Source of the DNA: Planctomycetota bacterium
GTDB taxonomy: Bacteria > Planctomycetota > PLA2 > JAEUHO01
Direction: 5' to 3'
Assembly (NCBI GenBank): GCA_965222115.1
Contig: CBDCTJ010000001.1
Coordinates: forward strand, 591,638 to 655,637
Length of the DNA stretch: 64,000 nucleotides
Shown: in pieces, positions 5,017 to 28,724 of the stretch
Position numbering within the stretch: position 1 is the first letter of the stretch
Layout of the letters: each line of letters begins with the position of its first letter
Translations under genes and position numbers: made by a program
The notes under the pieces: generated by a model
Databases searched by the model: none
What the model was told of the DNA's origin: nothing
The model's input: the letters and a program-made list of their open reading frames with translations, nothing else

Positions 5017-5233
5017 GTGGCGCCAAGATACCAAGCAAAGGCACGATCCTCACATTTGACGCGTTTCGTCGAGCGCGTGTCAAGTGTGTTGCGATGCATG
5101 GAACACGGCGGACGAGGGACAGCTTGTCCATCGTGACGCGAGATTGGGCATTATCTACAATCCAATACATGAAACGAGGCTCATTGGGATGTGCCATGAT
5201 GCCCGGCGCTTTCGCATCCATACTCGGATGCCG

Positions 5234-6766
5234 TTAGTCCCGCGCAATGCCATCTGCGTCGTAGCGAATAAGAAGAAGGTCGTCGCGCTGAAATTCAGAG
5301 TCAAAGATCTGCTCGTTGGGCGTGCCCAAGTTCACCGTGAAACTCTCGTAAAACGTTCCGCCAATCACAAAGCTGCCGTCGTCGAACGCCGCAATGTCGC
5401 CCCAGGGCGATGTGGAGCCAATGCCTCCGTCGCGGCGAGCCCAAATGAGCGCGCCGGACGCGTCGAACTTGGCAATGAGGTAGTCGTTGCGCTCAAATGC
5501 AGCAAGGTGCAACTCGTCATGGCTATCGGGGTTAATCGTCACGACACCGGGTCCCTCGCCCAGCACAATGAAGGAGCCATCGCCCAAGGCAGCGATGCCA
5601 AGTGAATTCAAGAACGTGTCGACACGATGCTCGAGGTATTTGGCCCAACGCACACCACCATCCACGTCGAAACACGCGATAAATGAGTTTGCATCACTCT
5701 GACTGGTCAATGTCATTGCATCGGGTTGCCCGACGTTGAGCGTCATTGCGCCAGCGTTAAACGTCCCAAACACAGCCACCGCTCCATTGGCTAGCACCGT
5801 AGCCTCGCGTAAGAACTCTCGATTGGTGCCCGTCGCGTGGCGGGCCCAACGGACCGCCCCATTTGCATCCAATCGCGCAATGTACCCGTCATCAATTCCG
5901 TCCGGCACAAAGACCTGCTCGCGTGGCGTCCCACTGGCAAACGTCGTTTCCTCTGTAAACGTCCCGGTCACAATCAACTCGTTGCCCGGTAGGGCGGCGA
6001 TGCCCATCGCCACGCCAAATCCCGATCCGATACCGGGCGTCGTGGCGTATATGAGGGAGCCGTCGGACGCATAGCGTGCCACGAAATTCGTTACCACGGC
6101 CGTCGCCACCGAAGAAAGTGTGGTTTCGCTCGCTTCGCCTTCCCCAAATGTGGCCTCGGGGTCAATGTATCCGCAGAAAGCCGCCGATCCGTCGGCGAGC
6201 GCGCATGCAGAGTTTATGCCGGCACGATATCCACGTATGACGCGCACCCACAGCAACTCACCGGTCGCGGAGAACTTGGCGGCGAACGTGCTTTCCGTTT
6301 CATCAAACACAAAGGCATTGGGCTGGAGCGGGGCGACCTCGGTGCGGCCGGAGGCCGTTCCCATCACCATACAGGCACCATCGGGAAGCGAAACGACGGC
6401 GCTGAGCCGCGCGAAATCGTCGCTCTCAACCGTGCACACCCACCGAAGACGGCCGTCGGCTTCGTAGCGACAACAAAATCCGGTTCCCGTGCCGGCTCCC
6501 ATGCGCGTCGTTTCACCGCTACGTCCCGGCGCAAACGTGTGCGTATTCTCGAAGGAGCCGCAGGTTGACATGGATCCATCACTGTGAATCGCAACATCGT
6601 CGGTGTAGTCAAATCCCGACCCGGTTTCGATGGAAATGAAGGACGAGGAGGCCAGTTCTAGGTCGGCGTCCTCGCCTCCACCACCGCCTCCGCCACAACC
6701 CACCATCAACAGACTGATGGCACAGATGCCTACAATGAGTCTCCGATCGCTGGTTTGCCTGGACAT
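5234..6766 (-). CDS. Lipoprotein with beta-propeller (SBBP-like) repeats
   Basis: Lipobox MVGC plus poly-Gly linker; repeated (F/Y)IARxDxxGxxxW blades; AGGAG RBS. Confidence 0.8.
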   Translation of the reverse strand: MSRQTSDRRLIVGICAISLLMVGCGGGGGGGEDADLELASSSFISIETGSGFDYTDDVAIHSDGSMSTCGSFENTHTFAPGRSGETTRMGAGTGTGFCCRYEADGRLRWVCTVESDDFARLSAVVSLPDGACMVMGTASGRTEVAPLQPNAFVFDETESTFAAKFSATGELLWVRVIRGYRAGINSACALADGSAAFCGYIDPEATFGEGEASETTLSSVATAVVTNFVARYASDGSLIYATTPGIGSGFGVAMGIAALPGNELIVTGTFTEETTFASGTPREQVFVPDGIDDGYIARLDANGAVRWARHATGTNREFLREATVLANGAVAVFGTFNAGAMTLNVGQPDAMTLTSQSDANSFIACFDVDGGVRWAKYLEHRVDTFLNSLGIAALGDGSFIVLGEGPGVVTINPDSHDELHLAAFERNDYLIAKFDASGALIWARRDGGIGSTSPWGDIAAFDDGSFVIGGTFYESFTVNLGTPNEQIFDSEFQRDDLLLIRYDADGIARD

Positions 6767-6983
6767 CTACTACTCCTGAACTAGGTCTCGAAGTGCTAAG
6801 GCGTAGATGCCATGTCGGCTTGACCGCAAAATCTGGAATTTCCGAGCGATGGTGGCTTTGCCTACCGACTTAGGGCTCCCCCAGGAGGCCATCAAGCAAC
6901 GTGTGGACGCGCTTTGAGTCCCCGTGGAACCTCAATCGACGTCGAACGGCGTAGCTGTACATCTCCAGACGTCGCTAGAGGTT

Positions 6984-7280
6984 CTAATATTCCTCGACCC
7001 GAATGTCGTCTTGCGCTGCGCGTCGATAGGAGCGCTGCTTTAACGAGGCACCGGTAAAGAACACGCACACGCCAAGCACCAACAACCCAAATGCGTATAA
7101 CGCCAGGCTCCAGCCAAACCACCCAACCAGCGCCCCCACGATAGACACGCAACCCGCAGCGATGGCCAGCATCGCCATGAGAATCCCAATGTAATAGAGG
7201 CAGTCGCCTAGAAACCACGTGCGCGCCGCGGGATGATTGCGCCGACGCAGTTCTTTATAGAACGGCATGTCCATTGACAT
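6984..7280 (-). CDS. Small membrane protein, hypothetical
   Basis: 98-aa ORF with two hydrophobic helices. Confidence 0.6.
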   Translation of the reverse strand: MSMDMPFYKELRRRNHPAARTWFLGDCLYYIGILMAMLAIAAGCVSIVGALVGWFGWSLALYAFGLLVLGVCVFFTGASLKQRSYRRAAQDDIRVEEY

Positions 7281-7583
7281 GGATGCATGATACAGCGTCT
7301 CGAGGCAGCAGATTCTACCGTTCGCGGATTCGCTTCCAAGTTGCCAGGCGAATCGCCATGCCGCTCACCATCGCTCGTGGTTGCCGGCAACTAAAGGGCG
7401 CCGCCCACCACCGACGACGTGCGAGTCGATGTTCAAGCTCGGCGAGACTCTCCACGAAATGCTCACCGGCCATCTACTGCTGGGCAGGGTGGGCGTTTCC
7501 AGCCGATACGCGAATTCTCTAGCGGCAATGAAATCGATAGCTTCGGTTTCCTACATAGCACGTGAACCCCTTGGAGAATCCCC

Positions 7584-7715
7584 ATGAAGGTCCTCGCGTT
7601 ATTGCTGATTTCACTCTCGCTTACCGCGTGCGGTGGCGGTGGCGGCGGGTCTGAGCCAGCCAGCGTACCAAACCACTGGGATCAAATGGTGTGGGATCAA
7701 GGGTTATGGGAGTAG
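7584..7715 (+). CDS. 43-aa lipoprotein with C-terminal WDQMVWDQGLWE motif (absent from the ORF track)
   Basis: GGAGA RBS 7573-7577; MKVLALLLISLSLTAC-GGGGGG-SEPASVPNHWDQMVWDQGLWE*. Confidence 0.75.
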   Translation: MKVLALLLISLSLTACGGGGGGSEPASVPNHWDQMVWDQGLWE

Positions 7716-7770
7716 TTGGCAGCGGACCTGCGACTACGTCCTCGAACTCGACTCAAGTTGGAGAATCACG

Positions 7771-8397
7771 ATGCGACATTCGAAATATGTAGCGTGGAGC
7801 GCAATGCTCCTTCCGGTGGCACTGGTGTGCGCCGGTCTCGTCTATGCAAGTTCGGTCACTACGCCAAACACGTTCGTTGGGGGCACGGCAGTCGTTGCCG
7901 CAGAAGTAAACGCAAACTTCTCGGCGCATGCAGCCGCCATCAATGATAACGATGCGCGACTCAGCACGTTGGAATCAACCGCAATCACTCAGTTTCGGCG
8001 CCAACTTCACAGCTTTGATACGGAGTCCGCCGTATTTACCAATTCGCTAGGTGTTGCCCGACGGGCAAATCTGATGCGTGTCACTAAACATCATGATGAC
8101 ACGAAGTTTGAACTGGTATACGACGGCGAGTTCTCGCTTACAGAGAACAGCTCCGCCACGTTTTCTCTTGCGTTTGGACTGGATGACTTCAACCCCGGTA
8201 GCTTTCCGGCGCAGATCGAACGAATCTACGATGGTGCGCTGTTTGGAGAAGGCAACTTTCGCACCATTTACGACGGGCTACCTGCTGGCGAGTACACCGT
8301 CACCGTATGGGGTAGGGCGCACGGAGGCACCGCCACTGGACTCACGCTCTCTCCTCGCAATTCAAGCGAAACGTTCTTTATCAAAGAGTATCGATAA
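7771..8397 (+). CDS. Secreted protein with N-terminal PNTF..AAEVNANF motif (fibre/adhesin-like)
   Basis: GGAGA RBS, ATG 7771, signal peptide, short coiled coil, then a beta-rich C-terminal domain. Confidence 0.75.
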   Translation: MRHSKYVAWSAMLLPVALVCAGLVYASSVTTPNTFVGGTAVVAAEVNANFSAHAAAINDNDARLSTLESTAITQFRRQLHSFDTESAVFTNSLGVARRANLMRVTKHHDDTKFELVYDGEFSLTENSSATFSLAFGLDDFNPGSFPAQIERIYDGALFGEGNFRTIYDGLPAGEYTVTVWGRAHGGTATGLTLSPRNSSETFFIKEYR

Positions 8398-8488
8398 CAC
8401 GGATGCCGAGCCAGATGAGCTACCGGCCTGTTCATCTCATTTTGGTATCTTCGGTTTCCAACAAAACCGCTTGACAGGGCTAACCGTT

Positions 8489-8508
8489 TAGAGATGACTC
8501 GGTATCTT
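8489..8508. repeat. Junction motif TAGAGATGACTCGGTATCTT (19/20 inverted copy at 27151-27170; degenerate copy at 12706-12723)
   Basis: Direct sequence comparison. Confidence 0.9.
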
Positions 8509-8796
8509 CTATGGTGCTTTGCGAATTCCAGCCCTTTGTTCATAGGAACGAAGCTCGCGCTCTAGTGTATGGGCAGTTCCAAGCTCTATTACGGTACCGT
8601 CGCTCGCCATTACGAGCAGAGGCCCGAGACCCAAGATACCTTGCAATTCGTCGCCAGTTTCTACAGCGACCTTGGAATTGAAGCAGAACACCCACCCGTA
8701 GCTTGTCGGGTGCACGTAGGTTAGTGCCAACGGTATTCTCGTGAGAGAACTCGCGTGCTCTTCGGCCAGACTCTGGGCTTTGATGCGTGAAATCAT
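8509..8796 (-). CDS. Imm35/YrhB-like immunity protein
   Basis: YGWVFCFNS...LGLGPLLV..DG signature; AGGAG RBS; preceded by a papain-fold toxin tail. Confidence 0.75.
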   Translation of the reverse strand: MISRIKAQSLAEEHASSLTRIPLALTYVHPTSYGWVFCFNSKVAVETGDELQGILGLGPLLVMASDGTVIELGTAHTLERELRSYEQRAGIRKAP

Positions 8797-8804
8797 AAAT
8801 TCTC

Positions 8805-8882
8805 CTAATTCGTTCTAGCGTACGAAATCCTGGCGAAACCGCGAAGATCAGCGCCTTTGGGCGATTGCCCGTCAAGGTAGCG
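8805..8882 (-). pseudogene. 3' remnant of a papain-fold (Tox-PL, glutamine deamidase-type) toxin
   Basis: Reads RYLDGQSPKGADLRGFARISYARTN*, resembling the (F/Y)LDGQ...RTN* C-terminus of that family; cut by the junction motif at 8884-8896. Confidence 0.65.
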
Positions 8883-8900
8883 CTGACTCGGTATCTCCGC

Positions 8901-9128
8901 CTACCGAGGGAGCCACGATGCCTTGAGTATGCGTTCGCTGGCGTCCTCGATTTCGATTCTAGCGTTCATTCCTCGCGCATTCGTATTCGTGTGGACTTCC
9001 CAGATGATCGGACCAAAGAACAGCCAACGTCGCCGTCGCTTCACACGTACGGGCTCCTTCCATAACCAACCACGTCGTTCGATCTCAACCCTAGCAATCA
9101 CTTCTGCACGAACTCGATCTATTGACAT
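8901..9128 (-). CDS. Small hypothetical protein (possible immunity cargo)
   Basis: GAGGAG RBS, 75 aa; stop 4 nt from the junction motif. Confidence 0.65.
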   Translation of the reverse strand: MSIDRVRAEVIARVEIERRGWLWKEPVRVKRRRRWLFFGPIIWEVHTNTNARGMNARIEIEDASERILKASWLPR

Positions 9129-9139
9129 AGCCGTGCTCC

Positions 9140-9349
9140 TCACTCAGCCGAGACGGCGTATTTGACGTCACCCACGATGATCATCGCCCCAGTCGCCTCA
9201 CCGACAACGCGCCTCAGCGACACGTACGAAGTCGGTCTTCTTAGCGGGAATCGTATCGCATCGGGAAGACCCTTGATGCCGCACGCCCGCGGTTGCGCAT
9301 CCGCCTCTGCTAGGACCTCCTCGAGATAGCGATACAAGTGCGAGCGCTG
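9140..9349 (-). pseudogene. 3' fragment of an unidentified gene truncated at AGATATCAAG (9350-9359)
   Basis: Open frame with no credible start, ending just upstream of the RBS of 8901-9128. Confidence 0.4.
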
Positions 9350-9430
9350 AGATATCAAGAGAATCGATCGCCTAGGTCGATGCCAATTGTCTCGATGATG
9401 CGTTTATGCATGCTGGTAGTTCCTCCTGGG

Positions 9431-9518
9431 CCGTAGAACCCGTTGTTTATTTGCAGCACGATTTACCGTGACAGCGTGACAGGGGAACTACCGGCCTTTT
9501 CACCCCATCTCGGTATCT
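9431..9518. repeat. ~88-bp conserved non-coding arm ending in the junction motif (second copy 25381-25466; partial copies 8417-8450 and 26166-26191)
   Basis: Shared blocks CCGTAGA, GCAGCACG, CCGTGAC, CTACCGGCCTTTTC, CATCTCGGTATC. Confidence 0.85.
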
Positions 9519-9848
9519 TCATCTTGACTTCGAAATTTCGGCAGCCAACTTGTAGGCGAGGCTGTAGTACATTTCATAATATGGAGAGTCGTTTGGCACA
9601 TATTCAATCGCTTCGAGACTAACGATCAATCCAGTAGAAGCTCGAAAATCCCTTATGGCCTTGGTAACCGCCTCCAAAACGCGCGCTGGTTCGACGCTAG
9701 ACGAGTTATCCTCACGCACCCTAGCTAGCGGAATCAACCTCGGTGGCGAGTCGTTTTCACCCAACGCGGGCACTAGGCCGAGGAGAACATGTCGCAACCC
9801 GCTGTCAAACATTGCGCGAAATGAGTTACCGCTACGATAAATCTTCAT
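9519..9848 (-). CDS. Putative orphan immunity protein
   Basis: GGAGG RBS; start overlaps an upstream stop (TAATG) of a gene reduced to about 5 codons; stop abuts the junction motif. Confidence 0.6.
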   Translation of the reverse strand: MKIYRSGNSFRAMFDSGLRHVLLGLVPALGENDSPPRLIPLARVREDNSSSVEPARVLEAVTKAIRDFRASTGLIVSLEAIEYVPNDSPYYEMYYSLAYKLAAEISKSR

Positions 9849-9887
9849 TACTTGCCCTCCAGCGGATACCAAGCCGCGTATCCTTCA

Positions 9888-10758
9888 CGATACCAAGCCG
9901 CGTATTTTCCCACCAACTTCGTGACCTATGCCCCGCACCACATGATGCGGATCTAACAGCTTCAATGTCCGCGCAAATTGATCCTGCCGCTACGCGAAAG
10001 TCTTCTCTATGGCTATTGTCAAGAGTTCAGATGCGTGCAATGCGTAGTTCGAATGTTGCTCGATGAGTTTGTGATGGAGTGCGCGAAGACGCCCGACTGT
10101 GCTTGTGCTCGCATCAGTCCATCTTGATGCAGCTGCGATTACGAAGCGAGATCGACCGAGCATCCCATCGCGTCGATTTGGTCTGTTGAACCAGCGCGTG
10201 TATGCATTTCCAATGCGCATCATCGCATAGGACAGCGTTCCCTCGTCCGTACGCGCCATCAAGTGATAGTGAGAGCCAAGTAAACAGAACGCCTCTGGCC
10301 GAATCTCGTCACGACGCCGCGCACACGCGAGGAATGCTTGGAACTGACGACGATCTCGCGGTCCCGCGAACATCAAACGCTTGCTAATCCCTCGCATATA
10401 GATGTGATGACGAACACCCGGACCGTCGAATCGATTGCGCTTGCCCATATACGTAACTACGCGCAGCGCGCGAAATGGTCACACGTACGGGCGGTGTCAG
10501 GCTCTTGCGGTCAGCGCGGTGAGTCGAAAGTCACGAAGTTGGTGGGAAAAAACGCGGCTTCTATGAAAAGGCCTTGCATGTCAAGTGCGAAGCCGCGTCG
10601 GCGAGCGCATTTTCCGCGTTGTATATGTGCACATCGGCCCCTTGAGTACGCAACTTACCCTTATCGCCCTTGCCTTTTTGGCAGCGGATCGGAGCGAATC
10701 AAATTGCCAGCCATCGTCACTGGCGCCAGAAAACACGTCCCATTCAGGCTTGGTATCT
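9888..10758 (-). mobile_element. RAYT (HUH/Y1 transposase) element copy A with inverted GATACCAAGCC ends
   Basis: Ends 9888-9899 and 10747-10758; inner ~29-bp IR GCCGCGTwTTTTCCCACCAACTTCGTGAC at ~9897-9925 and ~10530-10558. Confidence 0.75.
9990..10448 (-). pseudogene. REP-associated tyrosine transposase, internally deleted
   Basis: RFDGPGVRHHIYMRG, HYHL (HUH), C-terminal HTH; the catalytic YxxxNP region is missing. Confidence 0.8.
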
Positions 10759-10761
10759 GTT

Positions 10762-11076
10762 TCATCCTGTGCGTAGGTGCCTCACTTGCCGCAGGCGACT
10801 AAGAGTATCGCGCAGAGCCGCTGCCCTTTGCGTCTCGTTCACATACAGGAGAAACTTTGCGTTCTGATGACTTGGCTCCGTCCACTCGTCCTCGAAGGAG
10901 TCGTAGTTTGGCTGGAGCACAAAGTGCTCTCCCCCAGATGTTCCTGCTCGATAATAGTCGCCGACCCATGAACTTTCATGGAGACTCATCGCGAGTCCGA
11001 GCCCCTGCTCGACAATCACCCTAGCGTCCTCAAGAGTGGATGCAGTGATACCATAGAGTGAGTAGTTGGTGTTCAT
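10762..11076 (-). CDS. Putative immunity protein
   Basis: ATGA overlap with an upstream toxin tail; acidic, 104 aa; stop 3 nt from the junction motif. Confidence 0.7.
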   Translation of the reverse strand: MNTNYSLYGITASTLEDARVIVEQGLGLAMSLHESSWVGDYYRAGTSGGEHFVLQPNYDSFEDEWTEPSHQNAKFLLYVNETQRAAALRDTLSRLRQVRHLRTG

Positions 11077-11347
11077 CGGACTCCAATGCTAGGTGATCGT
11101 GCCGCAGCCTGGGCCGCAACTCGGTAAACCATGAAATTTACGGGTCGGCCAGCCATCTTCTCGAGTGATCGCTGTAGACTACTCAGGCCAAGCGACTGAA
11201 TTTCGACGGGGAGTAGCGGCCCAGTCCGCGTTCCCTTGGACCGTAGGCCAACCCCAAGCCTCGCGGCAGTGTCAAACAGCGACTCGCTCGCGAGGGCGAT
11301 GTCGAAGTCGCTGACTCGGCCCACATCGAAGGGCTCGTGCGGAGGCC
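11073..11347 (-). pseudogene. C-terminal remnant of a polymorphic toxin (nucleotidyltransferase-like PFDVGRVSDFDIAL type)
   Basis: Frame reads ..EPFDVGRVSDFDIALAS..RTGPL..GRPVNFMVY; 5' end cut at AGATACCAAGCC (11348). Confidence 0.6.
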
Positions 11348-12492
11348 AGATACCAAGCCGCGTTTTTTCCCACCAACTTCGTGACCTATGTCCCGCACCA
11401 CATGATGCGGATCTAACAGCCTCAATGTCCGCGCAAATTGATCCTGCCGCTACGCGAAAGTCTTCTCTATGGCTATTGTCAAGAGTTCGGATGCACGCAG
11501 TGCGAAGTTCGAATGTTGCTCGATGAGCTTGTGATGGAGTGCGCGAAGACGCCCGACGGTGCTTGTGCTCGCATCAGTCCATCTTGATGCCGCTGCGATT
11601 GAAAGCCCGGCATAGCTGCACAACATTCCGATTCGAAGTACTTGCCATGCATCGCGTCGATTTCGCCTGTTGAACCAGCGCGTGTATGCATTTCCAATGC
11701 GCATCATCGCATAGGACAACGTTCCCTCGTCCGTACGCGCCATCAAGTGATAGTGAGAGCCAAGTAAACAGAACGCCTCTGGCCGAATCTCGTCACGACG
11801 CCGCGCACACGCGAGGAATGCTCGGAACTGACGACGATCTCGCGGTCCCGCGGACATCAAACGCTTGCTAATCCCACGCATATAGATGTGATGACGAACA
11901 CCCGGACCGTCGAATCGATTGCGCGTGCCCATATACGTGACTACGCGCAGCGCCCGATATGGTCACACGTACGAGGCGGTGTCAGACTCTTGCGGCTGGC
12001 GCGGTGAGTCGAAAATCACGAAGTTGGTGGGAAAAAACGGCTCTACTGCTCTTTGTGTGGGTCGTGATTTGGTGATTTCTTGTCCTGCCGCCCCTAAGAG
12101 GGCGCGGACGGCAGGAAAAGAAATGATGTTGGTGAGATTGGGCTGTCACAAACTTGTGGGGCCGTGCGAACCCAGCTACTGAGCCGTTCAAAGGCGCAAT
12201 TTTTCATGTTGTTGGCGTGTAGTGGCCGCCTCGGATCCAATACGATGCTTCCGTGACCCACATGAAGAGCAGGAGACTCGAAAAAACGCGGCTTCTATGA
12301 AAAGGCCTAGCATGTCAAGTGCGAAGCCGCGCCGGCGAGCGCATTTTCCGCGTTGTATATGTGCACATCGGCCCCTTGAGTACGCAACTTACCCTTATCG
12401 CCCTTGCCTTTTTGGCAGCGGATCGGAGCGAATCAGATTGCCAGCCATCGTCACTGGCGCCAGAGAACACGTCCCATTCAGGCTTGGTATCT
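11348..12492 (-). mobile_element. RAYT element copy B with a ~240-bp internal insert
   Basis: Near-identical to copy A; ends 11348-11359 and 12481-12492; arm 12281-12492 matches 10549-10758. Confidence 0.75.
11450..11932 (-). pseudogene. REP-associated tyrosine transposase, internally deleted (different breakpoints from copy A)
   Basis: Same N-terminus and HUH motif; jumps from NRRD to AWQVLRIG; no catalytic Tyr motif. Confidence 0.8.
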
Positions 12493-12500
12493 CGGTATCT

Positions 12501-12698
12501 CCGGTAGTACGTGTTGGGCGTCACGCCCAGCTGCTTGCAAATCAACCCTACTTTCGTGCCTTTTAGCTCAATCTTTGCCTGTCTCAGCATCCCAATAATC
12601 TGCTCCGTCGAGTACCGCTTCCTTGCCATCTGTTTGCTCCTGATCGAAAAGGTGTATCCGAACAAGTGGCACGCTCTGAGGGGGGGGGGGGCAGGTCA
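12501..12698 (-). mobile_element. IS3-family left-end remnant (IR plus the first ~43 codons of orfA)
   Basis: TGACCTGCCCCC.. end at 12698; AGGAG RBS; MARKRYSTEQIIGMLRQA..LGVTPNTYYR from ATG 12629. Confidence 0.8.
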
Positions 12699-12723
12699 CG
12701 CGTTAAGAGATGAATCGATATCT

Positions 12724-20796: not shown

Positions 20797-20875
20797 GTTT
20801 TGATCTCCATCTCGATTGGGTCATACGTCGTTAAAGTGAAAGCGCGCAATACCACTGCGCGCGAAAGACATGGGG

Positions 20876-21277
20876 TCATGGGTCGCACTCGTTTTCGATG
20901 TGATGCAGCACGGCTCCTTCAAACCACTTGCGGCGCCCGCTCTGACTGGCGGAATCGACCTTGACGAGTCGGCATCCGACTTGTAGCGACTCAAACCGCT
21001 TCCAATAGCGGTACCAATGCTGCCGAGTCATGCCGAGCTGCGCCGCGCACCAGGTGGCATCGCGCAACGGAAGCGTGCAATAGTCAGGTAGTTCAGTAGC
21101 GCGCGCGTTTGGCTCGACGTCATGCGTTGATCGCCCACTTCCAACAGCGACCTGATTCATCGCATCGGCATCGACGCCTGTTCGATCACATGGTGTTCGG
21201 TCACGTGGCGTTCGATCTCCCGGATCCGGAAGCCCGGCGGACAGCTCGTGTGGCAGATGGGGTTGTTCAGCGTACAT
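20876..21277 (-). CDS. Cro/AlpA/excisionase-like HTH protein
   Basis: C-terminal WCAAQLGMTRQHWYR...RKW; divergent from the repressor. Confidence 0.5.
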   Translation of the reverse strand: MYAEQPHLPHELSAGLPDPGDRTPRDRTPCDRTGVDADAMNQVAVGSGRSTHDVEPNARATELPDYCTLPLRDATWCAAQLGMTRQHWYRYWKRFESLQVGCRLVKVDSASQSGRRKWFEGAVLHHIENECDP

Positions 21278-21398
21278 ATCAACACACTAACGTATTTTTG
21301 CCTCACTGTCGAGCATATTTACCTTTTTTATGTATTTAGATACGGTAAATTAGTCCTAATCGGTTGACATCTCGCGCCCCTGCCCTTGGAGTCTCTTC
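21278..21398. promoter_or_regulatory. AT-rich divergent promoter/operator region
   Basis: ATTTACC (21317-21323) / GGTAAAT (21344-21350) inverted repeat between divergent HTH genes. Confidence 0.5.
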
Positions 21399-21782
21399 GT
21401 GAGTACAACGAAAGAATGGCCCTGGCACGCCAAGATTCAGGCCGAGCGCGGGCGCCGGGGCTGGACCTATGCCCACGTAGCGCGACGGGTAAAGGAGGAG
21501 TCGAGCCTCACTCGTCGCTGGCTGCGGGGAGAGACGCGACCTCGTGGTGACGTCATTCCGAAGTTTGCAAAGCTCATGGGCTGGCCCATTGCCTATTTGA
21601 TGGATGAGAACAAACCGTATCCGCCGGAGATGGACGACGACTGGCGAGAAGCGGTCCTGGATGGCCTTGATGAGCATCGTACGCGCCTCATGAATGCGAT
21701 GGCGGATGATCAGGCCGTGGCGTATCTGGTGAAGGCGCTTGATCAGTTTGAGGATCTTCGCGAGTCGTTGGGCGAGGATTAG
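21399..21782 (+). CDS. XRE-family repressor
   Basis: RGWTYAHVARRV..SLTRRWLRGETRP..IAYLM HTH; GGAG RBS, GTG start. Confidence 0.85.
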   Translation: MSTTKEWPWHAKIQAERGRRGWTYAHVARRVKEESSLTRRWLRGETRPRGDVIPKFAKLMGWPIAYLMDENKPYPPEMDDDWREAVLDGLDEHRTRLMNAMADDQAVAYLVKALDQFEDLRESLGED

Positions 21783-22296
21783 GTGTGTAGCAGCGACTTG
21801 CCTTGAAGGCTTCACGCGGCGCCGCGACAATGGCGACCCATTGACGAATTACATACTGTCGGATGGCAATCTGGCGCGCCCGATCTTCAGGCGTTGAGCC
21901 CGCGCTCAATGAGGCTCCGTGCGCTACGAGCCGATCCTTGGAGTCTATGAGGCTGGCGGAATCTTCGCGTGCATGTTTACCGTAATCAGGATCTCGCCGC
22001 CGGTCCGATTGCTTACCAACGCTGTTTTCCTTGGATTCGTTGGATTCATTAGAATCACTACCGCCGCTCTCTCGTCCGCGTTTGTTTGACACATGTGCTT
22101 CGTTTCCGGCCGCTTTCCCTCTCACCTAAGAGGGCCGAGAGGTTCCCAATGGCTCTCTGCGGAGGAACCATCTTAGGCATGGGGGCGACACTAACAAAAT
22201 ACTAATCAAGTGTTTGACCAATTTACTCAATATATTGTGGGCAATGGACTTATGTCTACTACTCAGAGTGCCTGATCTCTCCAGGAGAACCTCAGA

Positions 22297-23058
22297 CTAC
22301 TCGCCTCGTAGGCGCTCAACCTCCCGCTCCAGGTCGGCAACCCGAGCGGCGATCGAGGGGTGACCGTCCATGAGTTGATGTGCCCGGAACGCAGTCTCAA
22401 GCGTCGAGATCTTGGCGTACACCTTGTCCAGATCACGCTCCGCTTCGGGCCGACCGTAGTCCTCGTTTTCTACGTCCTTCAACCGTGCGGCTAAGGCCCC
22501 GAGCTCTCGTAGGGCATCGGATCGAGTGAAGCGATTCCCGCCAATGTCGGCGAGTGTTTCTTCCGCGTGATTCAAGCGAGTTCGCAACTCACGCATCGGA
22601 CCATTCGTAACGCGTTTCTCAACATTATCGATGGCTTGACTGAGCAGCTCTTTGGTTGCAGCAAGTTGCATCTTGTGATTTCGCTCCCACCCCGCGGTGC
22701 GGACTTCAAGCTGACGAAACGCTTCGTCTTCGCGACCGTCTTCCCGAGCACGCACGAGGTCGGCCGCATGGCTGACCTGAAGGGAAGACTCGTGACGTGC
22801 AAGCGTATCGATATAGCCTGTGGCTCCGAGCCGCACAATCGCCGTGGTAACGGACATGACAAGACCTGCCGCGCCAATGATCCAACCCCAGTTGATGGGA
22901 CGACGCGAATGCTCCGCGAGTTCTTTGAGCTCGCGAGCAAGCTTTTCAAAGTTGCGCTCCAAGTTTCCGAGTCCTGCTTGAACCTCGGCTTTGAACGACT
23001 CGAGATCGGTCTTGAGGCTGCCTATGCTGGTGTTCTTCGATGTTGTGCTAGTTGCCAT
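22297..23058 (-). CDS. Single-TM coiled-coil protein (phage lysis-cassette-like)
   Basis: N-terminal coiled coil, INWGWIIGAAG TM helix, long C-terminal coiled coil. Confidence 0.7.
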   Translation of the reverse strand: MATSTTSKNTSIGSLKTDLESFKAEVQAGLGNLERNFEKLARELKELAEHSRRPINWGWIIGAAGLVMSVTTAIVRLGATGYIDTLARHESSLQVSHAADLVRAREDGREDEAFRQLEVRTAGWERNHKMQLAATKELLSQAIDNVEKRVTNGPMRELRTRLNHAEETLADIGGNRFTRSDALRELGALAARLKDVENEDYGRPEAERDLDKVYAKISTLETAFRAHQLMDGHPSIAARVADLEREVERLRGE

Positions 23059-23386
23059 AGTGTTCATCCCCCACGGGTGCCTCTGCACGAGATGACGCTA
23101 CGTGTGCCTCGCGCACCGCTTGATCGATGGCCTCTTCTGCACGCCAGACACGAACGCTTGGCTTCGTGCGATGGTCGTAGAGCAGCTTGAGCCAAACGCC
23201 GAGGAGTGATCCCAACCCCGCCGACCACTTGATCCATGGCAACTCAGGCCAGAAATGAGCGGCGACGAGCGCAAAGAAGCCGAGCGTGGCGATACACGCG
23301 GGCGGAAATCCACTACGCATCCATAGTGACGATGGCTTGGGTCTACATGCATGGCTTACAGGCTCGTGGTTCATTTTCGTTTCCAT
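23048..23386 (-). CDS. Two-TM small membrane protein (holin-like)
   Basis: Two hydrophobic helices and a charged tail; overlaps both neighbours. Confidence 0.55.
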   Translation of the reverse strand: METKMNHEPVSHACRPKPSSLWMRSGFPPACIATLGFFALVAAHFWPELPWIKWSAGLGSLLGVWLKLLYDHRTKPSVRVWRAEEAIDQAVREAHVASSRAEAPVGDEHYGN

Positions 23387-23838
23387 AATCCGTATCCAAG
23401 TACCTGGCCGTTCTCTGACGTCATGCGCAGCGTCCGCTTATCGCCAGCGCTTCCGGAAACCGGCCACCATGAATGGGTCGTGGTCCCATCGCGCTGAAGA
23501 GTTACGTCGTTCTCCGGTCTTCCGATTGACTCGCGAAACGCATCTACCGTTTCTGCGCGCGCGGCGGCCCGCACGCGATCGTAGGGAATCGCGTCATTTG
23601 GAAGTGGTCCGCTCTCTTGATCGGGAGGTGGAACTACTTCCGGTATCGGTATCAAGTCGGGCTCAAAGATCACGTCGGGATTGGGTGTCGGGGGAGAGAC
23701 ATCGGGCGCGGGTTCGATGTGGGGTTCAACCGGTGGATCGACGACCACAATCTCGGGTTGCGTAGTGCACGCAAACGTCGCGAATGCGAACACCAGCACT
23801 ACGCTTCGCTTGATCAGACTTGCTGACTCGTATGTCAT
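23371..23838 (-). CDS. Pro-rich lipoprotein
   Basis: GGAGG RBS; lipobox TFAC; Pro-rich linker. Confidence 0.7.
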   Translation of the reverse strand: MTYESASLIKRSVVLVFAFATFACTTQPEIVVVDPPVEPHIEPAPDVSPPTPNPDVIFEPDLIPIPEVVPPPDQESGPLPNDAIPYDRVRAAARAETVDAFRESIGRPENDVTLQRDGTTTHSWWPVSGSAGDKRTLRMTSENGQVLGYGLWKRK

Positions 23839-23839
23839 C

Positions 23840-24676
23840 TCAAACCTCCACCGACAGGGGCTTCAACGGCGCCCACGATTCCCAAACGAATTCGTTCTCC
23901 CAAACATCGAACGGAATCCATGCGAAACACGGCGGCAGATCGTCGCCCATCACGGGGTGCGAGATCCCCCACCCATTCCAAGAGTTCATTTCTAGAAACG
24001 CGCCGCGTCGTCGTGCACTTGTCGCTACGTATTCGCGGTCGTACCCCACGATCTGCGTGCAATGACCGCCAAGCATGGCACCCCGAGCACCTTCATGCAC
24101 ACCCGTACGTCCCACACGCTCGGTATTGGCATAGACACCGCGCCCAATCACCACCGGACGTGCGGGAAGTCCATCGAGTCCGGCGAGTGCGGCGGCAACT
24201 TGCGTTGCACGTCGAAGATAGGACCAACCCACACGATGAAGCGGGCGCTCCAACGTTGCAGCCTCCGGCGGCAAATCGGTTGTGACGCGACTGGGGTCGT
24301 AGGGCCATGCGGCTTCGCTACACGTTCCGTACTCGCCGATCCAGCGCGCGACATGATGCAGATAGGCACCGCGATCGCGCTTGTGAGCGTTCCCACCCTC
24401 CAATAAACGACCGCCGTAGTAGACATCCATTCGCGACACATCAACCGATGCACCGGTTTGCTGCTTGGTAAAGGTCTCAAGTGCGCCGCCGAATCCATGC
24501 GCGGTACACGAACCAGCATGTTCTTGAAACTGTGCGCGCCACAGTGGCAGTAATACGCGCATAGGCAGCGAACTCATGCGAGTCGAGCGCGCTAGCCTGC
24601 GCGTGCGAGGAAGAGACGTCTTCGGTGTGGGCCCTTTGACGCCGCCAATCGGAAGCATCGATACGTCGATAGCCAT
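23840..24676 (-). CDS. Papain-like cysteine peptidase (C1 family)
   Basis: QEHAGSC, GGHCTQIVGYD, NSWNGWG catalytic motifs. Confidence 0.9.
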   Translation of the reverse strand: MAIDVSMLPIGGVKGPTPKTSLPRTRRLARSTRMSSLPMRVLLPLWRAQFQEHAGSCTAHGFGGALETFTKQQTGASVDVSRMDVYYGGRLLEGGNAHKRDRGAYLHHVARWIGEYGTCSEAAWPYDPSRVTTDLPPEAATLERPLHRVGWSYLRRATQVAAALAGLDGLPARPVVIGRGVYANTERVGRTGVHEGARGAMLGGHCTQIVGYDREYVATSARRRGAFLEMNSWNGWGISHPVMGDDLPPCFAWIPFDVWENEFVWESWAPLKPLSVEV

Positions 24677-24686
24677 GCGATCACGC

Positions 24687-25187
24687 CTACTTCATGAACG
24701 CATGCGGATCGTCCGCAGACGTCGTGCATGTCGGACACAAGTTTCCCGCAGCAGTTCGCTCCGCAGAAGGCGCTGGTGATTCGACCGCAGGCGCAATGGC
24801 TTGGACGAGGCCCAATGAAATAGTCTCATCGGACATGGAGTAGCTCATTGGCAGAGGCGCGCATGGATCCGTTGGGGCACGCGCGGGGGGTGCCGCAGGC
24901 AACGAATAGGGAGCAGCCGGATAGGACACAACACGCTGCACAGCTCGCGTCTGAGCGAACGATGCGCGTTCAACCATGGGACGTGCATCCGTACACGTAC
25001 CGCCAATGCAGAACTTGCATCCAAACACAGGATCTCGAACACACAGACCATTGATCGTCTCGCCGACAACGGTCTGAACGTCAAGTGCTGTAGCGCGCTG
25101 GGTTGCGGGCGGCGCACTCTGCATCGTCGTACAGGCCGTGGCCATAGACAATGCGAAACCAACCAGTATCAATCGAACAAAGAACAT
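24687..25187 (-). CDS. Cys-rich lipoprotein
   Basis: GGAGG RBS 25194-25198; lipobox ATAC; CxxC pairs. Confidence 0.65.
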   Translation of the reverse strand: MFFVRLILVGFALSMATACTTMQSAPPATQRATALDVQTVVGETINGLCVRDPVFGCKFCIGGTCTDARPMVERASFAQTRAVQRVVSYPAAPYSLPAAPPARAPTDPCAPLPMSYSMSDETISLGLVQAIAPAVESPAPSAERTAAGNLCPTCTTSADDPHAFMK

Positions 25188-25380
25188 AATCATCCTCCGC
25201 AATCGGAGGGTCGCACGGTTCTTATACGCGCTTGGTCAGAGAGAGGTTCCCCTCTTTTACTGTTCTCTCATAGCGACCGCGTAAGGGGAAGTATCTCGAA
25301 AGCTCATTAGATGATTCATCTGCACTCGAACGCAAGGGTCGATCTCGCTAAAGCGCTGCAATGTGCTGCACGAAAGGGGA

Positions 25381-25500
25381 CCGTAGAGCCCGCCTTTTTC
25401 GCAGCACGGTTTTCCGTGACTGATCTATAGAGGAGCTACCGGCCTTTTCGTTCCATCTCGGTATCCAGTACCCGGCATCCATCTCGATATCCTCGTATCC
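25381..25500. repeat. Conserved arm plus four stacked junction-motif variants
   Basis: CATCTCGGTATCC, CCCGGCATCC, ATCTCGATATCC, TCGTATCC in tandem at 25454-25500. Confidence 0.8.
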
Positions 25501-25508
25501 GTTGGTGA

Positions 25509-26003
25509 TTAACGGCTGGTGACGAATCCCCAAGAACTGCTTCGTTGCGGCTCCCATGAGATCTTCCCATCTGCATCACGACGAACCATTGTGACCAATC
25601 CGCCACCGCCATCAACCGCTCGAACTCGAATCTCAAACTCACCGTCGTACTCATTTATGCCACTCGGAATCACCGCCCACACCTCTAGAACTCCTTCATC
25701 AGCGCTGTCCGTAGCCCCAATCCATTTAAGAGATAGAGGATCACTTGGATCCAACGCAAGTGCTTGGACAGCTTCGATCACCCAACGAGATGTCGAGTGG
25801 TCACTTAATATCTTACGACGCTGCGTAATCGTTCTAACCTCCACTTCCAGTACTTTCTTGCGCAAGCACGCTGTCTCATAGTTGGGCTGAGGCTCCCTAT
25901 ACTTGGACGACGTGTCAGTAAGGCATCGTGTGCATGCGCCGCCCTTACAACCTGAAAGTACCAGAGGCAGCAAGACAAGCAGGAAGTTTCCGACGATTCT
26001 CAT
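25509..26003 (-). CDS. Hypothetical lipoprotein
   Basis: Signal peptide with LSGC lipobox. Confidence 0.65.
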   Translation of the reverse strand: MRIVGNFLLVLLPLVLSGCKGGACTRCLTDTSSKYREPQPNYETACLRKKVLEVEVRTITQRRKILSDHSTSRWVIEAVQALALDPSDPLSLKWIGATDSADEGVLEVWAVIPSGINEYDGEFEIRVRAVDGGGGLVTMVRRDADGKISWEPQRSSSWGFVTSR

Positions 26004-26239
26004 TTAGCTATCCATGTCGCGTTGGTGGACTCTGAGTTGAAGGGGGCGGGGTTGGGCGGTCATCGACCTAGCGATCAACGTCGTATTTCGAACGTCATTG
26101 AGTTGGTGAGATTAAACGCGACTTTGCATCCACAAATTGCCTTGGCCGCAGGACTGACTAGCGAGCGGCCTTTCATCCCATCTCGGCATCTACATCGAGC
26201 GGTGAACTCCGGGCCATACCACTTAGAATCGGTCACCCT

Positions 26240-27148
26240 ATGGAATCACGCCCTCCCACCGGACCTAATCACCCGTCGAACGCCCAACTTCGGAGTCGAA
26301 TCGAGACGCTCTTCGATGGTCCTGTTCAGTTTGAGGATCGATCCCGGACGTTCGGGCGCGCCCATGTGGTGTGGCGGGTGTCCACGCACAGCGGCGAGGC
26401 GTTCTTTGCCAAGCAGCACGAATCTCCGCTCCACTTTGGGCGCGCATTGATGGCCCATGAACGATGGTTTCCTGAGCTCAAGCACATTGACAGCCTTGCT
26501 CTCCCCCATGCCGTCGCCGTCGACTACGACCTGCATCTCATCGTTGTGAAGGAGATCGAAGGGCAGATCGTTGACAACGTATCGCCGCACGATCAGTTGA
26601 TCGCAATGCGATTGGCCGGACGAATTTTGCGCGCGGTTCACGATGTCGATGACCGTCTGAATCAAGGGGATTCAGAAGCGGCGCACCGCGCGATGGCCGT
26701 CAAGTATACTGGGATACTCCCGGGAGAAGTGTCTGCGGAAGAAGAGGCATGGATACGTTCAATCGCCTCGGACACGTCCATCTTTCGTCATGCACGAGCG
26801 GTCCCTACTCACGGTGATTTTTCGCCACGCAACTGGATACTTCAGAGTGCAGAGTGTGGGCCAGTACTCGGCGTGATCGACTGGGAGCGCGCTCGTCACC
26901 ATGCTTGGATTCACGACATCGTTCGCATGATGCACGACTACTGGGCGCGGGAGCCTGCAGGGCGTGACGCATTCTTTGCTGGGTATGGTCGCACGCCCAG
27001 CGACGCCGAAGAGCGACAGATCCTCTGGAGCAGTGCGCTAATGGCGGGAGCGAGCGTTGCTTGGGCACGCACATTTGGTGACCGCCACTATGAACAACTT
27101 AATCGCGACTTGCTAGCGCGCCTGATGGCAAGACACCCTCGAATTTGA
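26240..27148 (+). CDS. Aminoglycoside phosphotransferase/choline kinase family protein
   Basis: FFAK, HGDFSPRNW, VIDWE motifs; flanked by inverted junction motifs at 26179-26191 and 27152-27170. Confidence 0.85.
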   Translation: MESRPPTGPNHPSNAQLRSRIETLFDGPVQFEDRSRTFGRAHVVWRVSTHSGEAFFAKQHESPLHFGRALMAHERWFPELKHIDSLALPHAVAVDYDLHLIVVKEIEGQIVDNVSPHDQLIAMRLAGRILRAVHDVDDRLNQGDSEAAHRAMAVKYTGILPGEVSAEEEAWIRSIASDTSIFRHARAVPTHGDFSPRNWILQSAECGPVLGVIDWERARHHAWIHDIVRMMHDYWAREPAGRDAFFAGYGRTPSDAEERQILWSSALMAGASVAWARTFGDRHYEQLNRDLLARLMARHPRI

Positions 27149-27167
27149 GAAAGATACTGAGTCATCT

Positions 27168-28724
27168 CTACTTCGCACCCTTCGACGCCGGCTTGGCACG
27201 CATCTTCGGATGGGGCACAACGGCGGGCCAACGGATGGAAACCGACGTACCGCGACCGGGTGTACTCGATAGCGTCATAGCGCCGCCGGAAGCATGTACG
27301 ATTTCGCGGACGAGATAGAGTCCGAGTCCCGAGCCACCGGGTTTGTCGGTGAAGAAGGGCTCGAACACTTTGGCTTGAACGTCTTCGGGAATGCCAGGTC
27401 CACTATCGCGAATGGTGACCTTGACGCTGCGCCGCATACGGCGTACTTGCAGGGTGATGGTGCCGCGTCGTGCTGCTGCGCTTGGTTCGGGTTCCGTGCC
27501 TTTTCCATTGGTTGGGACGTGAGCCGCGGCGGGCATCACGGTTTCGTGTGTGCCACGAATGGCGTCGAGTGCGTTCTCAACCACGTTGAGCAATACACGT
27601 CGAACTTGATTGGGATCCACGGAGATCTCGTGGTTGCCGTCATCGCGGCGCACGCGCATGGTTACGCCCACGTCCGCCGCACGCGATTCGAGCTCTTCGG
27701 TAAACGATGCCACGGTGTCGCCGAGATCGAGGACTTTGGGTTCCGCGCCGCCGATCTTAGAGAGCGCGAGGTAGTGCGTAATGATCTGATTGAGACGCTC
27801 AATCTCTTCGCGAATGGCCTGCAGGGTGGGTGCGATGGCGCGGCGTGTGGCGTCGTCAGCCTCCAGCTCGTCTTCCAAGAGATCCGTTGATATGAATAAC
27901 GAGTTGAGCGGATTACGAAACTCGTGTGCCACGCTACCGGCGATTTTTGCCATCGCGGAGAGCTTCTCCGTTTCGATGAGACGCTCTTTGATGTGTTGCA
28001 CTTCGGTCAAGTCATGAAACACAAATAGGTAGCGCTCCCGGTCGGGATCTTTCTTTGACGCGCGATTGTTGTTTGGTGAATTGTTTCCTTTGGATGTGTC
28101 TTTCTTGGATACGTCTTTGGATTGGCTTGAACTGCCCACCTCACCACTGTCGGGCAGGCGCGATGCAAACATGCGTACCGGCACCGACTCGCCACCGGAG
28201 CGACGCAACATGAGCTCACGCCCCCGTATCGCTCCGCGCTGGTCAAGATCGCTAAGAATCGTTCGGTATGTCTCGCCGTTCTCGAAGATCGAACGCAGCC
28301 CACGACGCCCGACTTCCCAGCGCTTGCGACCGGTCAAGCGCGCCGCGGCAGCACTCCAGCGGGCAAGCCGACCCGATGCGCGCACCGTCACAACGGCATC
28401 GGGCGTTGCACGCAACAAATGGTCCCAATGCAGCTCCCCGGGTGCTGGCAACGGCGCACCTTCCGACTTACGACGTCGCGACGATTTTCGCTTCTTCTTA
28501 CGATCGCTGGCCTTGCGGTCATTCGCTTTGCGTTCGCCGGCCTTTCGATCACTTGCCTTGCGGTTCGCCCGTTTCTGATCGGGCGCGCGTCGAGCTGCGG
28601 TCTTCTGATCCTTCTTCTTGTCCCTCTTCTTGTCCTCGTTCGGCGCCTTCCGCTCGGCCACGTTTCCCTCAGTGGACTTGCGCTCCCCTGCCTTGTTCGA
28701 ACTCTTGGATCGGGCAGATGCCAT
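27168..28724 (-). CDS. PAS sensor histidine kinase
   Basis: PAS domain, AHEFRNPL H-box, NALDA, DSGPG, FEPFFT, GSGLGL; basic low-complexity N-terminus. Confidence 0.95.
   Translation of the reverse strand: MASARSKSSNKAGERKSTEGNVAERKAPNEDKKRDKKKDQKTAARRAPDQKRANRKASDRKAGERKANDRKASDRKKKRKSSRRRKSEGAPLPAPGELHWDHLLRATPDAVVTVRASGRLARWSAAAARLTGRKRWEVGRRGLRSIFENGETYRTILSDLDQRGAIRGRELMLRRSGGESVPVRMFASRLPDSGEVGSSSQSKDVSKKDTSKGNNSPNNNRASKKDPDRERYLFVFHDLTEVQHIKERLIETEKLSAMAKIAGSVAHEFRNPLNSLFISTDLLEDELEADDATRRAIAPTLQAIREEIERLNQIITHYLALSKIGGAEPKVLDLGDTVASFTEELESRAADVGVTMRVRRDDGNHEISVDPNQVRRVLLNVVENALDAIRGTHETVMPAAAHVPTNGKGTEPEPSAAARRGTITLQVRRMRRSVKVTIRDSGPGIPEDVQAKVFEPFFTDKPGGSGLGLYLVREIVHASGGAMTLSSTPGRGTSVSIRWPAVVPHPKMRAKPASKGAK

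Follow-up and report, generated by a model that had tools for sequence, protein, structure and literature searches.

A GATACC-tipped repeat bordering toxin-immunity genes, RAYT-like units and IS110-type insertions in a Planctomycetota genome: a probable leftover toxin-immunity array with insertion-sequence scars

A 64,000-nt stretch of the genome of a Planctomycetota bacterium (assembly GCA_965222115.1, contig CBDCTJ010000001.1, positions 591,638 to 655,637; hereafter the window) carries, between 5026 and 27170, repeated copies, exact or degenerate, of the 10-nt motif AGATACCRAG, eight of them just behind the stop codon of a gene, in a region where small genes trail a very large one coding for a putative toxin. 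The window lies on the first (C1) of the seven contigs, C1 to C7, of a 4.55-Mb assembly that is 90% complete; coordinates without a contig label are window positions. Exact AGATACCRAG occurs eight times in the window against 0.06 expected, a number attained by none of 100 shuffles, and the looser RGATRCCRAG 14 times against 1.0 expected, two of these copies (28909 and 38719) being absent from the list given in an earlier note on this DNA. The 21 sites that were listed there all lie at the coordinates and on the strands given; those other than exact AGATACCRAG deviate by one to three bases, four begin with GG instead of AG and the site at 6805 is weak (AGATGCCATG). The stretch 5026-12500 is the sole motif cluster of its kind in the assembly, with 11 loose-pattern matches in 7.5 kb versus about 0.25 per 5 kb elsewhere. 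The same note had reported eight genes with their stop codon 0-8 nt before the motif on the same strand, and these distances (3, 3, 1, 4, 0, 3, 0 and 8 nt) were reproduced. When all open reading frames (ORFs) of at least 60 aa are considered, 8 of the 21 sites have one stopping 0-8 nt upstream, the null rate in the window being 2.7% (binomial p ~4e-8, for a site list hand-picked by the note's author).

The motif, called the tip below, forms the outer end of a repeat that measures ~50 nt, is non-palindromic and reads, in order, GATACCGNG (between one and four tips), CCGCG, a run of T and CCCACCAACTTCGTGAC. The main array reads along the minus strand, on which all its features lie, the two RAYT-like units with inverted ends being given without strand. 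It is headed by a gene (13154-18151) for a 1665-aa low-complexity protein whose C-terminal HNH/EndoVII-like toxin domain is proposed from a feature-search lead. Directly behind follows a 141-aa gene (12724-13149) which, by its position, is the candidate cognate immunity gene, and whose stop abuts the motif (0 nt) of a degenerate solo tip, AGATATCGAT with TCATCTCTT (12705-12723). The next segment (12501-12698) is what remains of an IS3-type insertion sequence, its left end with the ~50 initial codons of orfA (PF01527 HTH_Tnp_1, E 1.8e-7), cut at the motif at 12500. There begins RAYT-like unit copy 2 (11348-12500), with inverted tips at both ends, an HUH gene (11450-11932, minus), a miniature inverted-repeat transposable element (MITE, 12040-12279) and a module derived from the right end of an IS110-type element (12292-12485). 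It adjoins a leftover toxin remnant (11073-11347), recognised by its homologues as the last ~90 aa of a toxin domain and cut at the inverted motif, and a 104-aa candidate immunity gene (10762-11076) that overlaps the remnant's stop by 4 nt and has its own stop 3 nt before a motif.

That motif opens RAYT-like unit copy 1 (9864-10758), again with inverted tips at both ends, an HUH gene (9990-10448, minus) and a right-end module (10558-10751), the latter sitting between the tip and the CCGCG of the unit's right repeat; at 9864-9887 the tip and the first bases of the terminal inverted repeat (TIR) are duplicated. Further on lies a 110-aa gene without family match (9519-9851), whose GGAGGG ribosome-binding site is 4 nt from the inverted tip and whose stop is 0 nt from the next motif. 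The segment 9350-9518 is composed of a tip, 167 nt of an IS110-type left end including the first 18 transposase codons, and an inverted tip-like CTTGATATCT, the break falling where the intact element reads CTTGGTAT. Two overlapping small ORFs (8901-9349), one of ~69 aa cut at the inverted motif and one of 80 aa with its stop 4 nt before a motif, make a candidate second module of toxin remnant plus immunity gene, and are followed by the solo tip AGATACCGAG (8887-8896) and by a 95-aa Imm35 immunity gene (8509-8796; PF15567, E 3.2e-7, above the curated cut-off) with its stop 1 nt before the motif. The array closes at 8401-8507 with a solo tip bearing a TCATCTCTA extension (8489-8507) and, at 8401-8450, a scar in which 30 nt of IS110-type left end stand between a tip and an inverted tip; the convergent gene 7633-8397 stops 3 nt short of the inverted tip at 8401.

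Motif copies are also found on both sides of this array. An outlying tip at 5026-5035 (plus) lies upstream of gene 4177-5016 (minus), 9 nt from its likely ATG. Others lie between 25377 and 27170, separated from the main array by a block (18161-25202) that may be a phage-like or mobile region; its minus-strand genes, for the most part without annotation, include those for an AAA_24 ATPase (5.5e-42), a sigma-70-like protein and a protein with a weak papain-like match. At 25377-25500 (minus) four tandem degenerate tips stand behind gene 25509-26003, whose stop is 8 nt away, and are followed by 89 nt of IS110-type left end; at 26054-26191 (minus) there is a degenerate copy of the whole repeat, made of a tip, a short IS110-type left-end remnant and CGCG-T/A run-CTCACCAACTCAATGAC; and at 27152-27170 (plus) a solo tip with the TCATCTCTA extension is placed between the stops of two convergent genes, 26240-27148 (plus, APH-like) and 27168-28817 (minus, a histidine kinase). 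The former has its stop 3 nt before the solo tip and codes for an APH-family phosphotransferase-like protein (PF01636, 2.8e-15; 24 bits with the APH(3') model, whose cut-off is 205). The earlier note held that the motif cuts genes in mid-frame, which stands for the IS3-type orfA (12500), the IS110-type transposase (9350) and the toxin C-terminal domain (11348); the ORF 4177-5034 is probably not cut, an ATG lying 9 nt inside the motif-proximal end.

Logan contigs from public runs, which may be the source sample itself, match 4500-9991, 10722-11384 and 12427-13500 with zero differences and, therefore, the junctions in those stretches are not artefacts of this assembly alone. The stretch is covered by four runs of one study, as contigs only and at a depth of ~4; none of the contigs over 4500-13500 bridges a removed or reordered module, and since contigs drop rare variants they are silent on mobility. 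A few joints fall within inverted or duplicated repeats (9889/10522, 10559/10506 and 12151/12254). A single contig of run X3 (depth 4.1) connects 11619 to 11921 via 18 other letters, and could reflect either a RAYT-like unit that has undergone a further deletion or another copy present in the community. As for the assembly, contig C6 (48 kb) has a GC content of 39.7% versus 55-59% in the other six contigs, and could stem from a plasmid, from foreign DNA or from a binning error.

The identity of the small genes is best approached through the remnant at 11073-11347. It has 158 longer homologues, the best being 76% identical (E 2.8e-32), many of which bear RHS, DUF637, PT-VENN, HINT or WXG100 domains; it aligns with the extreme C-terminus of proteins of 1585 and 1731 aa, and its domain forms the very C-terminus of Rhs, CdiA-type, HINT and LXG proteins. 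For the 104-aa gene behind it the Atlas feature search gives unnamed clusters of ~105-aa proteins at 0.91-0.92, from several phyla. The 1665-aa head protein has zero Pfam matches; its last 135 aa retrieve DUF2380, Tox-SHH, AHH and Pyocin_S clusters at 0.90-0.93 in the same search, which is taken as a lead only. Its gene contains two tandem ~195-nt repeats, 80% identical (16181-16566), and the protein is elsewhere rich in low-complexity, charged and Gly/Pro runs. The 141-aa gene and most small array ORFs gave no match in Pfam or NCBIfam, and PADLOC none among 10 array proteins. Together, the Imm35 gene, the toxin C-terminal remnant and the leads for the head toxin point to a set of leftover toxin-immunity modules, firmly for two modules and putatively, from gene position, for the rest. 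The cargos are not a random set of foreign DNA fragments; they are probably toxin-immunity modules of the polymorphic-toxin kind.

The repeat family to which the tip belongs has 21 credible copies in the genome, three of them within the window, and several cluster at toxin loci. Folded as DNA, tip plus repeat reaches only -0.7 kcal/mol (z +0.70) and makes no hairpin; the solo tips score z -0.26 and +0.28, and the segment 8398-8453 z -0.16, which rules out the scar at 8401-8450 as a strong hairpin. These results agree with the statement in the earlier note that no attC is visible, and so does the distribution of PF00589 with its absence of an integron integrase, the seven matches in the whole assembly being all on C7 and C4 and none on C1. 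The expectation that the motif would be linked to stop codons genome-wide failed for the bare 10-mer, with 0 of 23 copies outside the window stop-linked, so the 10-mer as such is ruled out as a stop-linked signal. On the other hand, 4 of the 18 repeat copies outside the window have an ORF of at least 60 aa stopping 0-5 nt before the outermost tip, in a hand count with a null of ~1.8%. Stop adjacency is therefore a property of the repeat, not of the 10-mer.

Searches beyond this genome returned little. Rfam gave zero matches over 4000-29000 of the window with E up to 1, and an 18-mer of the repeat core found 16 matches in a public genome-contig collection, about the chance number, from which records of this genome may be excluded; three of the 16, in one metagenome-assembled genome, are inside a repeated coding gene and have no tip. 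A degenerate tip-plus-repeat pattern had 0 matches in a metagenome scan, with the same possible exclusion of own-genome records, and RAYT-like unit 1 as a DNA query against 40 related genomes (24 of the same family, none of the same genus) yielded one weak 95-nt match of 72% identity. A group II intron with a 511-aa reverse-transcriptase-like ORF is present at C3:80878-82802 (L001:878-2802; Rfam group-II-D1D4-6, 169 bits; Intron_gpII, 44.6 bits), ~300 nt within a unit that is headed by the repeat and found in four or more copies; as the source of the repeat's inner sequence this intron (C3:80.9-82.8k) was ruled out, beginning ~300 nt further in.

When every motif copy was oriented and the sequence 3' of the tip compared, four kinds of continuation were found: ATGGGRTGAAAAGGCCGGTAG..., the left end of an IS110/IS1111-type element; CCTGAATGGGACG..., the terminal 194 nt of the same element; CCGCGT(A/T)TTTTCCCACCAACTTCGTGAC, the remainder of the repeat that flanks the RAYT-like gene; and TCATCTCTA or TCAGCGCTA, which characterise the solo tips, four copies, all within the window. 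The IS110/IS1111-type element encodes a 365-aa ORF (DEDD_Tnp_IS110, PF01548, 2.5e-18; Transposase_20, PF02371, 4.5e-22), is present in three full copies (C7:506880-508412, C3:484738-486303 and C7:2360467-2362002), and has a 386-nt non-coding region 3' of the gene and subterminal inverted repeats with ATGAAAAGGCC near both ends, which is the IS1111 layout. Seven of its eight left-end junctions adjoin a tip-like 10-mer (C7:508422, C3:484738, C3:196220 and window 9518, 8450, 25466 and 26191), that at C7:2362002 being the lone one without. The right-end module in the window starts at a copy of the terminal CATAGAAG that lies inside the element, and it ends CATAGAAG/CCGCGTTTTTTCCCACC inside the right repeat of the RAYT-like unit, adjoining CCGCG, from which it follows that the element inserts after the tip's final AG, between tip and CCGCG. 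An intact IS110/IS1111-type element inserts by preference at the tip, which is not itself part of the element; that candidate explanation is ruled out by the full copy without tip and by the uninterrupted repeat, which reads tip-CCGCG. At C7:2359821-2362002 one IS110-type copy has its last 325 nt repeated twice more in tandem behind it.

The recombinase of this element is the sole intact enzyme shown to use the motif, the element's insertions and remnants accounting for four of the sequence types found behind it, and it could be imagined as a cassette engine, RNA-guided, recombining tips with tips or with look-alikes so as to move, delete and stack modules in the manner of an integrase-free integron analogue. 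Besides the seven of eight left-end junctions, this proposal can draw on the tandem tips joined as AG/ATACC (12483-12500, C1:106336, C5:86280-86340 and C3:80540), the same AG/AT step as the element's own AG/ATGGG, and on the use of internal look-alike ends, with the right-end module triplicated at C7:2359821-2360468. Published relatives are reported to carry out insertion, excision and inversion (bridge-RNA/seekRNA) and to move as modules (10.1101/2025.01.17.633520); ISPpu9, also of the IS110 family, is reported in the same source to insert in repetitive extragenic palindromic sequences (REPs) and to move as separate modules. Nevertheless, no array module has both element ends as its bounds, four tips begin with GG and not AG, and for this family recombination of tip with tip in which no donor junction takes part is not described; the inverted-tip junctions, moreover, are on the tip's outer side, where the element is not seen to cut. 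A guide-like complement was likewise not found in the non-coding regions of the element, which gave no more than 5 nt of tip complement and one 7-nt match to the right flank. We therefore hold it to be unlikely, and the least unlikely of the alternatives considered here.

Other insertion sequences have also visited the repeat. The 240-bp MITE at 12040-12279 is of ISL3 type, with a 9-bp target duplication (GAAAAAACG), and lies in the repeat's T run (C1:603652); its ends match a full ISL3-family element at C7:1272594-1273850 (DDE_Tnp_ISL3, 9.8e-69), which itself adjoins a repeat T run at C7:1273899. Among the repeat copies inspected, the ISL3 element or MITE interrupts the T run at three (C1:603652 in the window, C7:1272427 and C7:2978824). 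The IS110-type remnants, the ISL3 MITE and the IS3 fragment generate most of the junction types seen in the array.

The motif had also been described as forming the termini of both RAYT (REP-associated tyrosine transposase) elements, and this observation stands. The RAYT-like gene is surrounded by perfect 31-nt inverted repeats, and the two copies are homologous over exactly the stretch that extends from GATACCAAG (9889/11349) to CTTGGTATCT (10758/12492). Because both copies contain the same IS110-type right-end module and are homologous tip to tip, the unit must have been copied after the module arrived, with the outermost tip used as its end. The HUH ORFs (152 and 160 aa) are both copies of a single gene that has suffered an internal deletion and whose paralogs code for 321 and 341 aa: the two ORFs retain the first ~103 and last ~40 residues and have lost the ~170-190 aa in the middle, including the Y(I/V)xxNP motif, in a segment which we take to hold the catalytic tyrosine. 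Over 103 aa they are 46.6% identical to the 341-aa paralog, which matches PF01797 Y1_Tnp at 4.9e-8, and they score 19-20 bits with the NCBIfam model REP_Tyr_transpos, for which the cut-off is 80. By tblastn only two other paralogs exist in the genome, neither with motif-tipped ends; the intact RAYT with these ends that the earlier note had asked for was not found in the 90%-complete assembly, both window copies being internally deleted. A PDB sequence search with the full-length paralog gave nothing relevant, and a metagenome scan with the RAYT-like protein, from which own-genome records may be excluded, no relative.

Given the deleted HUH genes and the paralogs without these ends, there is no enzyme in hand for the RAYT-driven system that had been put forward, in which a RAYT-type HUH nuclease would recognise the tip and either capture foreign DNA as cassettes or, by adjacent deletion, trim inserted DNA back to a selected gene. 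The proposal accounts well for some of the facts: the tip-ended repeat stands in inverted orientation around the only HUH genes that belong to this subfamily; the copying of the unit followed the tips exactly and produced no target duplication, which is how HUH elements move; tip-facing genes end 0-8 nt away; and genes under no expected selection (toxin 5' parts, transposases) are cut. It is weakened by the loss of ~170-190 aa with Y(I/V)xxNP in what is a single deletion derivative, by the low REP_Tyr_transpos score and by the lack of an intact gene with these ends in the assembly; the repeat has no hairpin (z +0.7), unlike known RAYT and IS200/IS605 substrates, the TIR-RAYT-TIR arrangement amounts to one independent instance that was duplicated, and the cargos are of one functional class instead of random captures. 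A RAYT-driven system is thus not supported by what the locus contains, and we consider it distinctly unlikely. The genome also has a separate, classical hairpin REP, with a consensus near GCGCCACAGAAACCAGGTATTTTTGGCGC and ~70 sites genome-wide in clusters of 2-4, which lies on both sides of the full-length 321-aa RAYT-like gene (C7:305836-307150, L006) and folds at -10.8 kcal/mol (z -1.96; L006:440-500). Some of its copies include the motif's first 7 bases, AGATACC, a likeness that can be counted in favour of a RAYT acting at the tip.

The genome-wide context of the repeat is provided by Rhs loci. The 80 RHS-repeat matches in the genome resolve into ~9 large rhs genes, none of them in the window, and the repeat is found behind the gene following rhs in six of nine loci examined, with a tip plus IS110-type element in a seventh; stop-to-tip distances there are 0, 5, 12, 13, ~21, ~78 and ~243 nt. 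Six loci were compared with the one on C5 as the reference (q coordinates). Homology of the rhs core stops at ~q5840-5872, is absent over the toxin tip and the next gene, and restarts in four of the six loci at q7313-7329, within the tips and just ahead of the repeat core (q7341), and later in the other two (q7489 and q7512). It follows that the tip is the first base of a conserved 3' arm behind the variable toxin-immunity segment. The stretch conserved from the tip onwards measures ~735 bp and consists of the repeat, ~150 nt and the start of a gene for 282-287 aa without Pfam match, frameshifted in several copies; this unit occurs at C1:67332, C1:269767, C3:453853 and C5:86320, and partially at C1:106335, C7:1573711, C7:2451538 and C7:2544152. 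Leftovers of rhs truncated at the 5' end start directly at the inner side of a repeat copy, as repeat-TTAAGTCTCGCC-rhs core, at C7:2545667-2547499, C7:3062129 and possibly C3:475814. In the Rhs locus C7:2542-2556k the leftover repeats 1136 nt of the rhs core.

The position of the repeat at these loci suggests yet another explanation, namely that it serves the unit after the immunity genes as a regulatory leader, be it promoter, operator or terminator, with the tips as protein-binding iterons and the junctions as mere borders of conserved blocks. The repeat is indeed always intergenic before a downstream module, be it the 282-287-aa gene (5 loci), rhs leftovers (2-3 loci) or, within the window, gene 25509-26003; the sequence CCAACTT-N16-CGTA, present in some copies, by eye resembles a promoter for an extracytoplasmic function (ECF) sigma factor, and the number of tips varies from 1 to 4 as in binding-site arrays. 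The putative -10 part, however, is not conserved among copies, and inverted copies at the RAYT-like gene, the tip-to-tip duplication, the solo tips and the genes cut at tips would all be left unexplained, which makes this the least probable of the explanations that we weighed.

We favour, with a probability of about 0.6, the reading that 8400-13150 and its outlier at 25377-27170 hold leftover toxin-immunity modules, arrayed in scrambled form behind a full-length toxin of HNH type, with insertion-sequence scars. Modules would have been gathered by polymorphic-toxin displacement and by recombination through conserved flanks, and repeated IS110-type insertion at tips would have detached these from the remainder of the repeat. 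Excision or deletion through look-alike ends, such as the internal CATAGAAG, the CTTGGTAT inside the transposase gene (the 9350 break) and the AG/ATACC at tip starts (tandem-tip examples at 12483-12500, C1:106336, C5:86280 and C3:80540), could then have removed toxin 5' parts and produced solo tips, tandem tips and the scars made of tip, remnant and inverted tip. The ISL3 MITE, the IS3 fragment and the two dead copies of the RAYT-like unit may have contributed further junctions. The tight stop-to-tip spacing would arise because the tip starts the conserved flank, and one-way loss of spacer beside a recombination-prone end, halted by selection on the gene, probably tightened it to 0-8 nt; this takes up the trimming idea of the earlier note, which fits the data, with no enzyme assigned to it.

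Several observations weigh against this leftover-array reading. The spacing of 0-8 nt at the eight sites of the array is tighter than at Rhs loci (0 to ~243 nt), which homologous recombination alone does not predict. The array does not stand at an Rhs locus and its head toxin has no paralog in the genome, and therefore the route by which tip-bearing modules arrived can only be surmised. The leftovers of the window begin inside the toxin domain at the motif, with no upstream core homology, unlike the leftover at C7:2545-2547k. The right tip of the RAYT-like units is 194 bp from its repeat core, yet homology between the copies runs exactly tip to tip, so some process must have used the tip itself as an end. 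Imm35 is the only immunity gene with a family match above cut-off, no homologues were found for ORF 9143-9349 (the second putative toxin remnant), and genes behind rhs have weak or unrelated family matches only. Finally, no tip complement longer than 5 nt was found in the IS110-type non-coding regions. Recombination at the tip itself may take place; the idea of the array as a gene-capture machine is unproven. Its strongest form would see in the GATACC-tipped site an attC-like inter-module recombination site, served not by a tyrosine integrase but by the IS110/IS1111-type recombinase or by a full-length RAYT absent from this assembly, and in the locus an "immunity integron" on the chromosome with a mechanism of a new class. 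This interpretation is kept alive by the unit's exact duplication from tip to tip, by the AG/ATACC tandem joins and by the 0-8 nt spacing; we judge it improbable, ranking it after the IS110-type engine and ahead of the RAYT-driven system.

Leftover immunity arrays determine which neighbours' toxins a bacterium survives. The locus described here offers a concrete case outside Bacteroidales, in which a shared 10-nt tip ends the modules, starts the conserved flank of Rhs loci and receives a recombinase of the RNA-guided type. If recombination at the level of the tip were true, bridge/seekRNA recombinases or RAYTs would become linked to cassette exchange; if not, the locus would still be a clear example of a repeat-targeting insertion sequence sculpting toxin-immunity loci.

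Set beside known systems, the array resembles integrons in its co-oriented small genes, each closely trailed by a shared site, and in the specialised insertion sequence that targets this site, IS1111 elements that target attC sites being a precedent. It differs from them in that C1 has no IntI-type integrase, the site has no attC-like fold and several of the "cassettes" are truncated genes. The likeness to REP/REPIN-RAYT systems consists in an HUH Y1 gene between inverted copies of a dispersed extragenic repeat, and that to REP-targeting elements of the IS110 family in a sequence-specific landing in the repeat that leaves separate right-end modules; unlike REPs, the repeat in the window forms no hairpin, has ~21 copies and is concentrated behind toxin-immunity modules, and the HUH gene is internally deleted. 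Orphan toxin-immunity arrays of Rhs loci, for instance in Salmonella, form by C-terminal displacement according to two reports (PMC3967940, PMC7043789). With such arrays our locus shares a putative full toxin and its candidate immunity gene followed by co-oriented, 5'-truncated toxin tips, each with a candidate immunity gene, as well as a variable segment between conserved flanks, shown at this genome's own Rhs loci; on the other hand, the leftovers of the window start at an inverted 10-nt tip without core homology, its head toxin is not an Rhs protein and its modules each end with the same tip 0-8 nt past the stop. The rAID clusters (for recombinase-associated acquired interbacterial defence) of Bacteroidales have a tyrosine recombinase at the head, co-oriented short immunity genes and conserved intergenic motifs, and their description states their biogenesis to be unknown (PMC12247911). 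The window likewise combines co-oriented leftover immunity genes with a conserved intergenic motif; unlike rAID, it has toxin remnants and a putative full toxin, no tyrosine recombinase is encoded on C1, and the motif is part of a repeat that flanks a RAYT-like gene and serves as an insertion-sequence target. The locus is therefore neither an integron nor a rAID cluster, and its repeat does not form the hairpin expected of a REP; by analogy, it would work most like the Rhs leftover arrays and the rAID clusters. The novelty lies in the combination: a single 10-nt tip borders toxin-immunity modules on their 3' side, terminates a RAYT-like unit and is targeted by an IS1111-type element.

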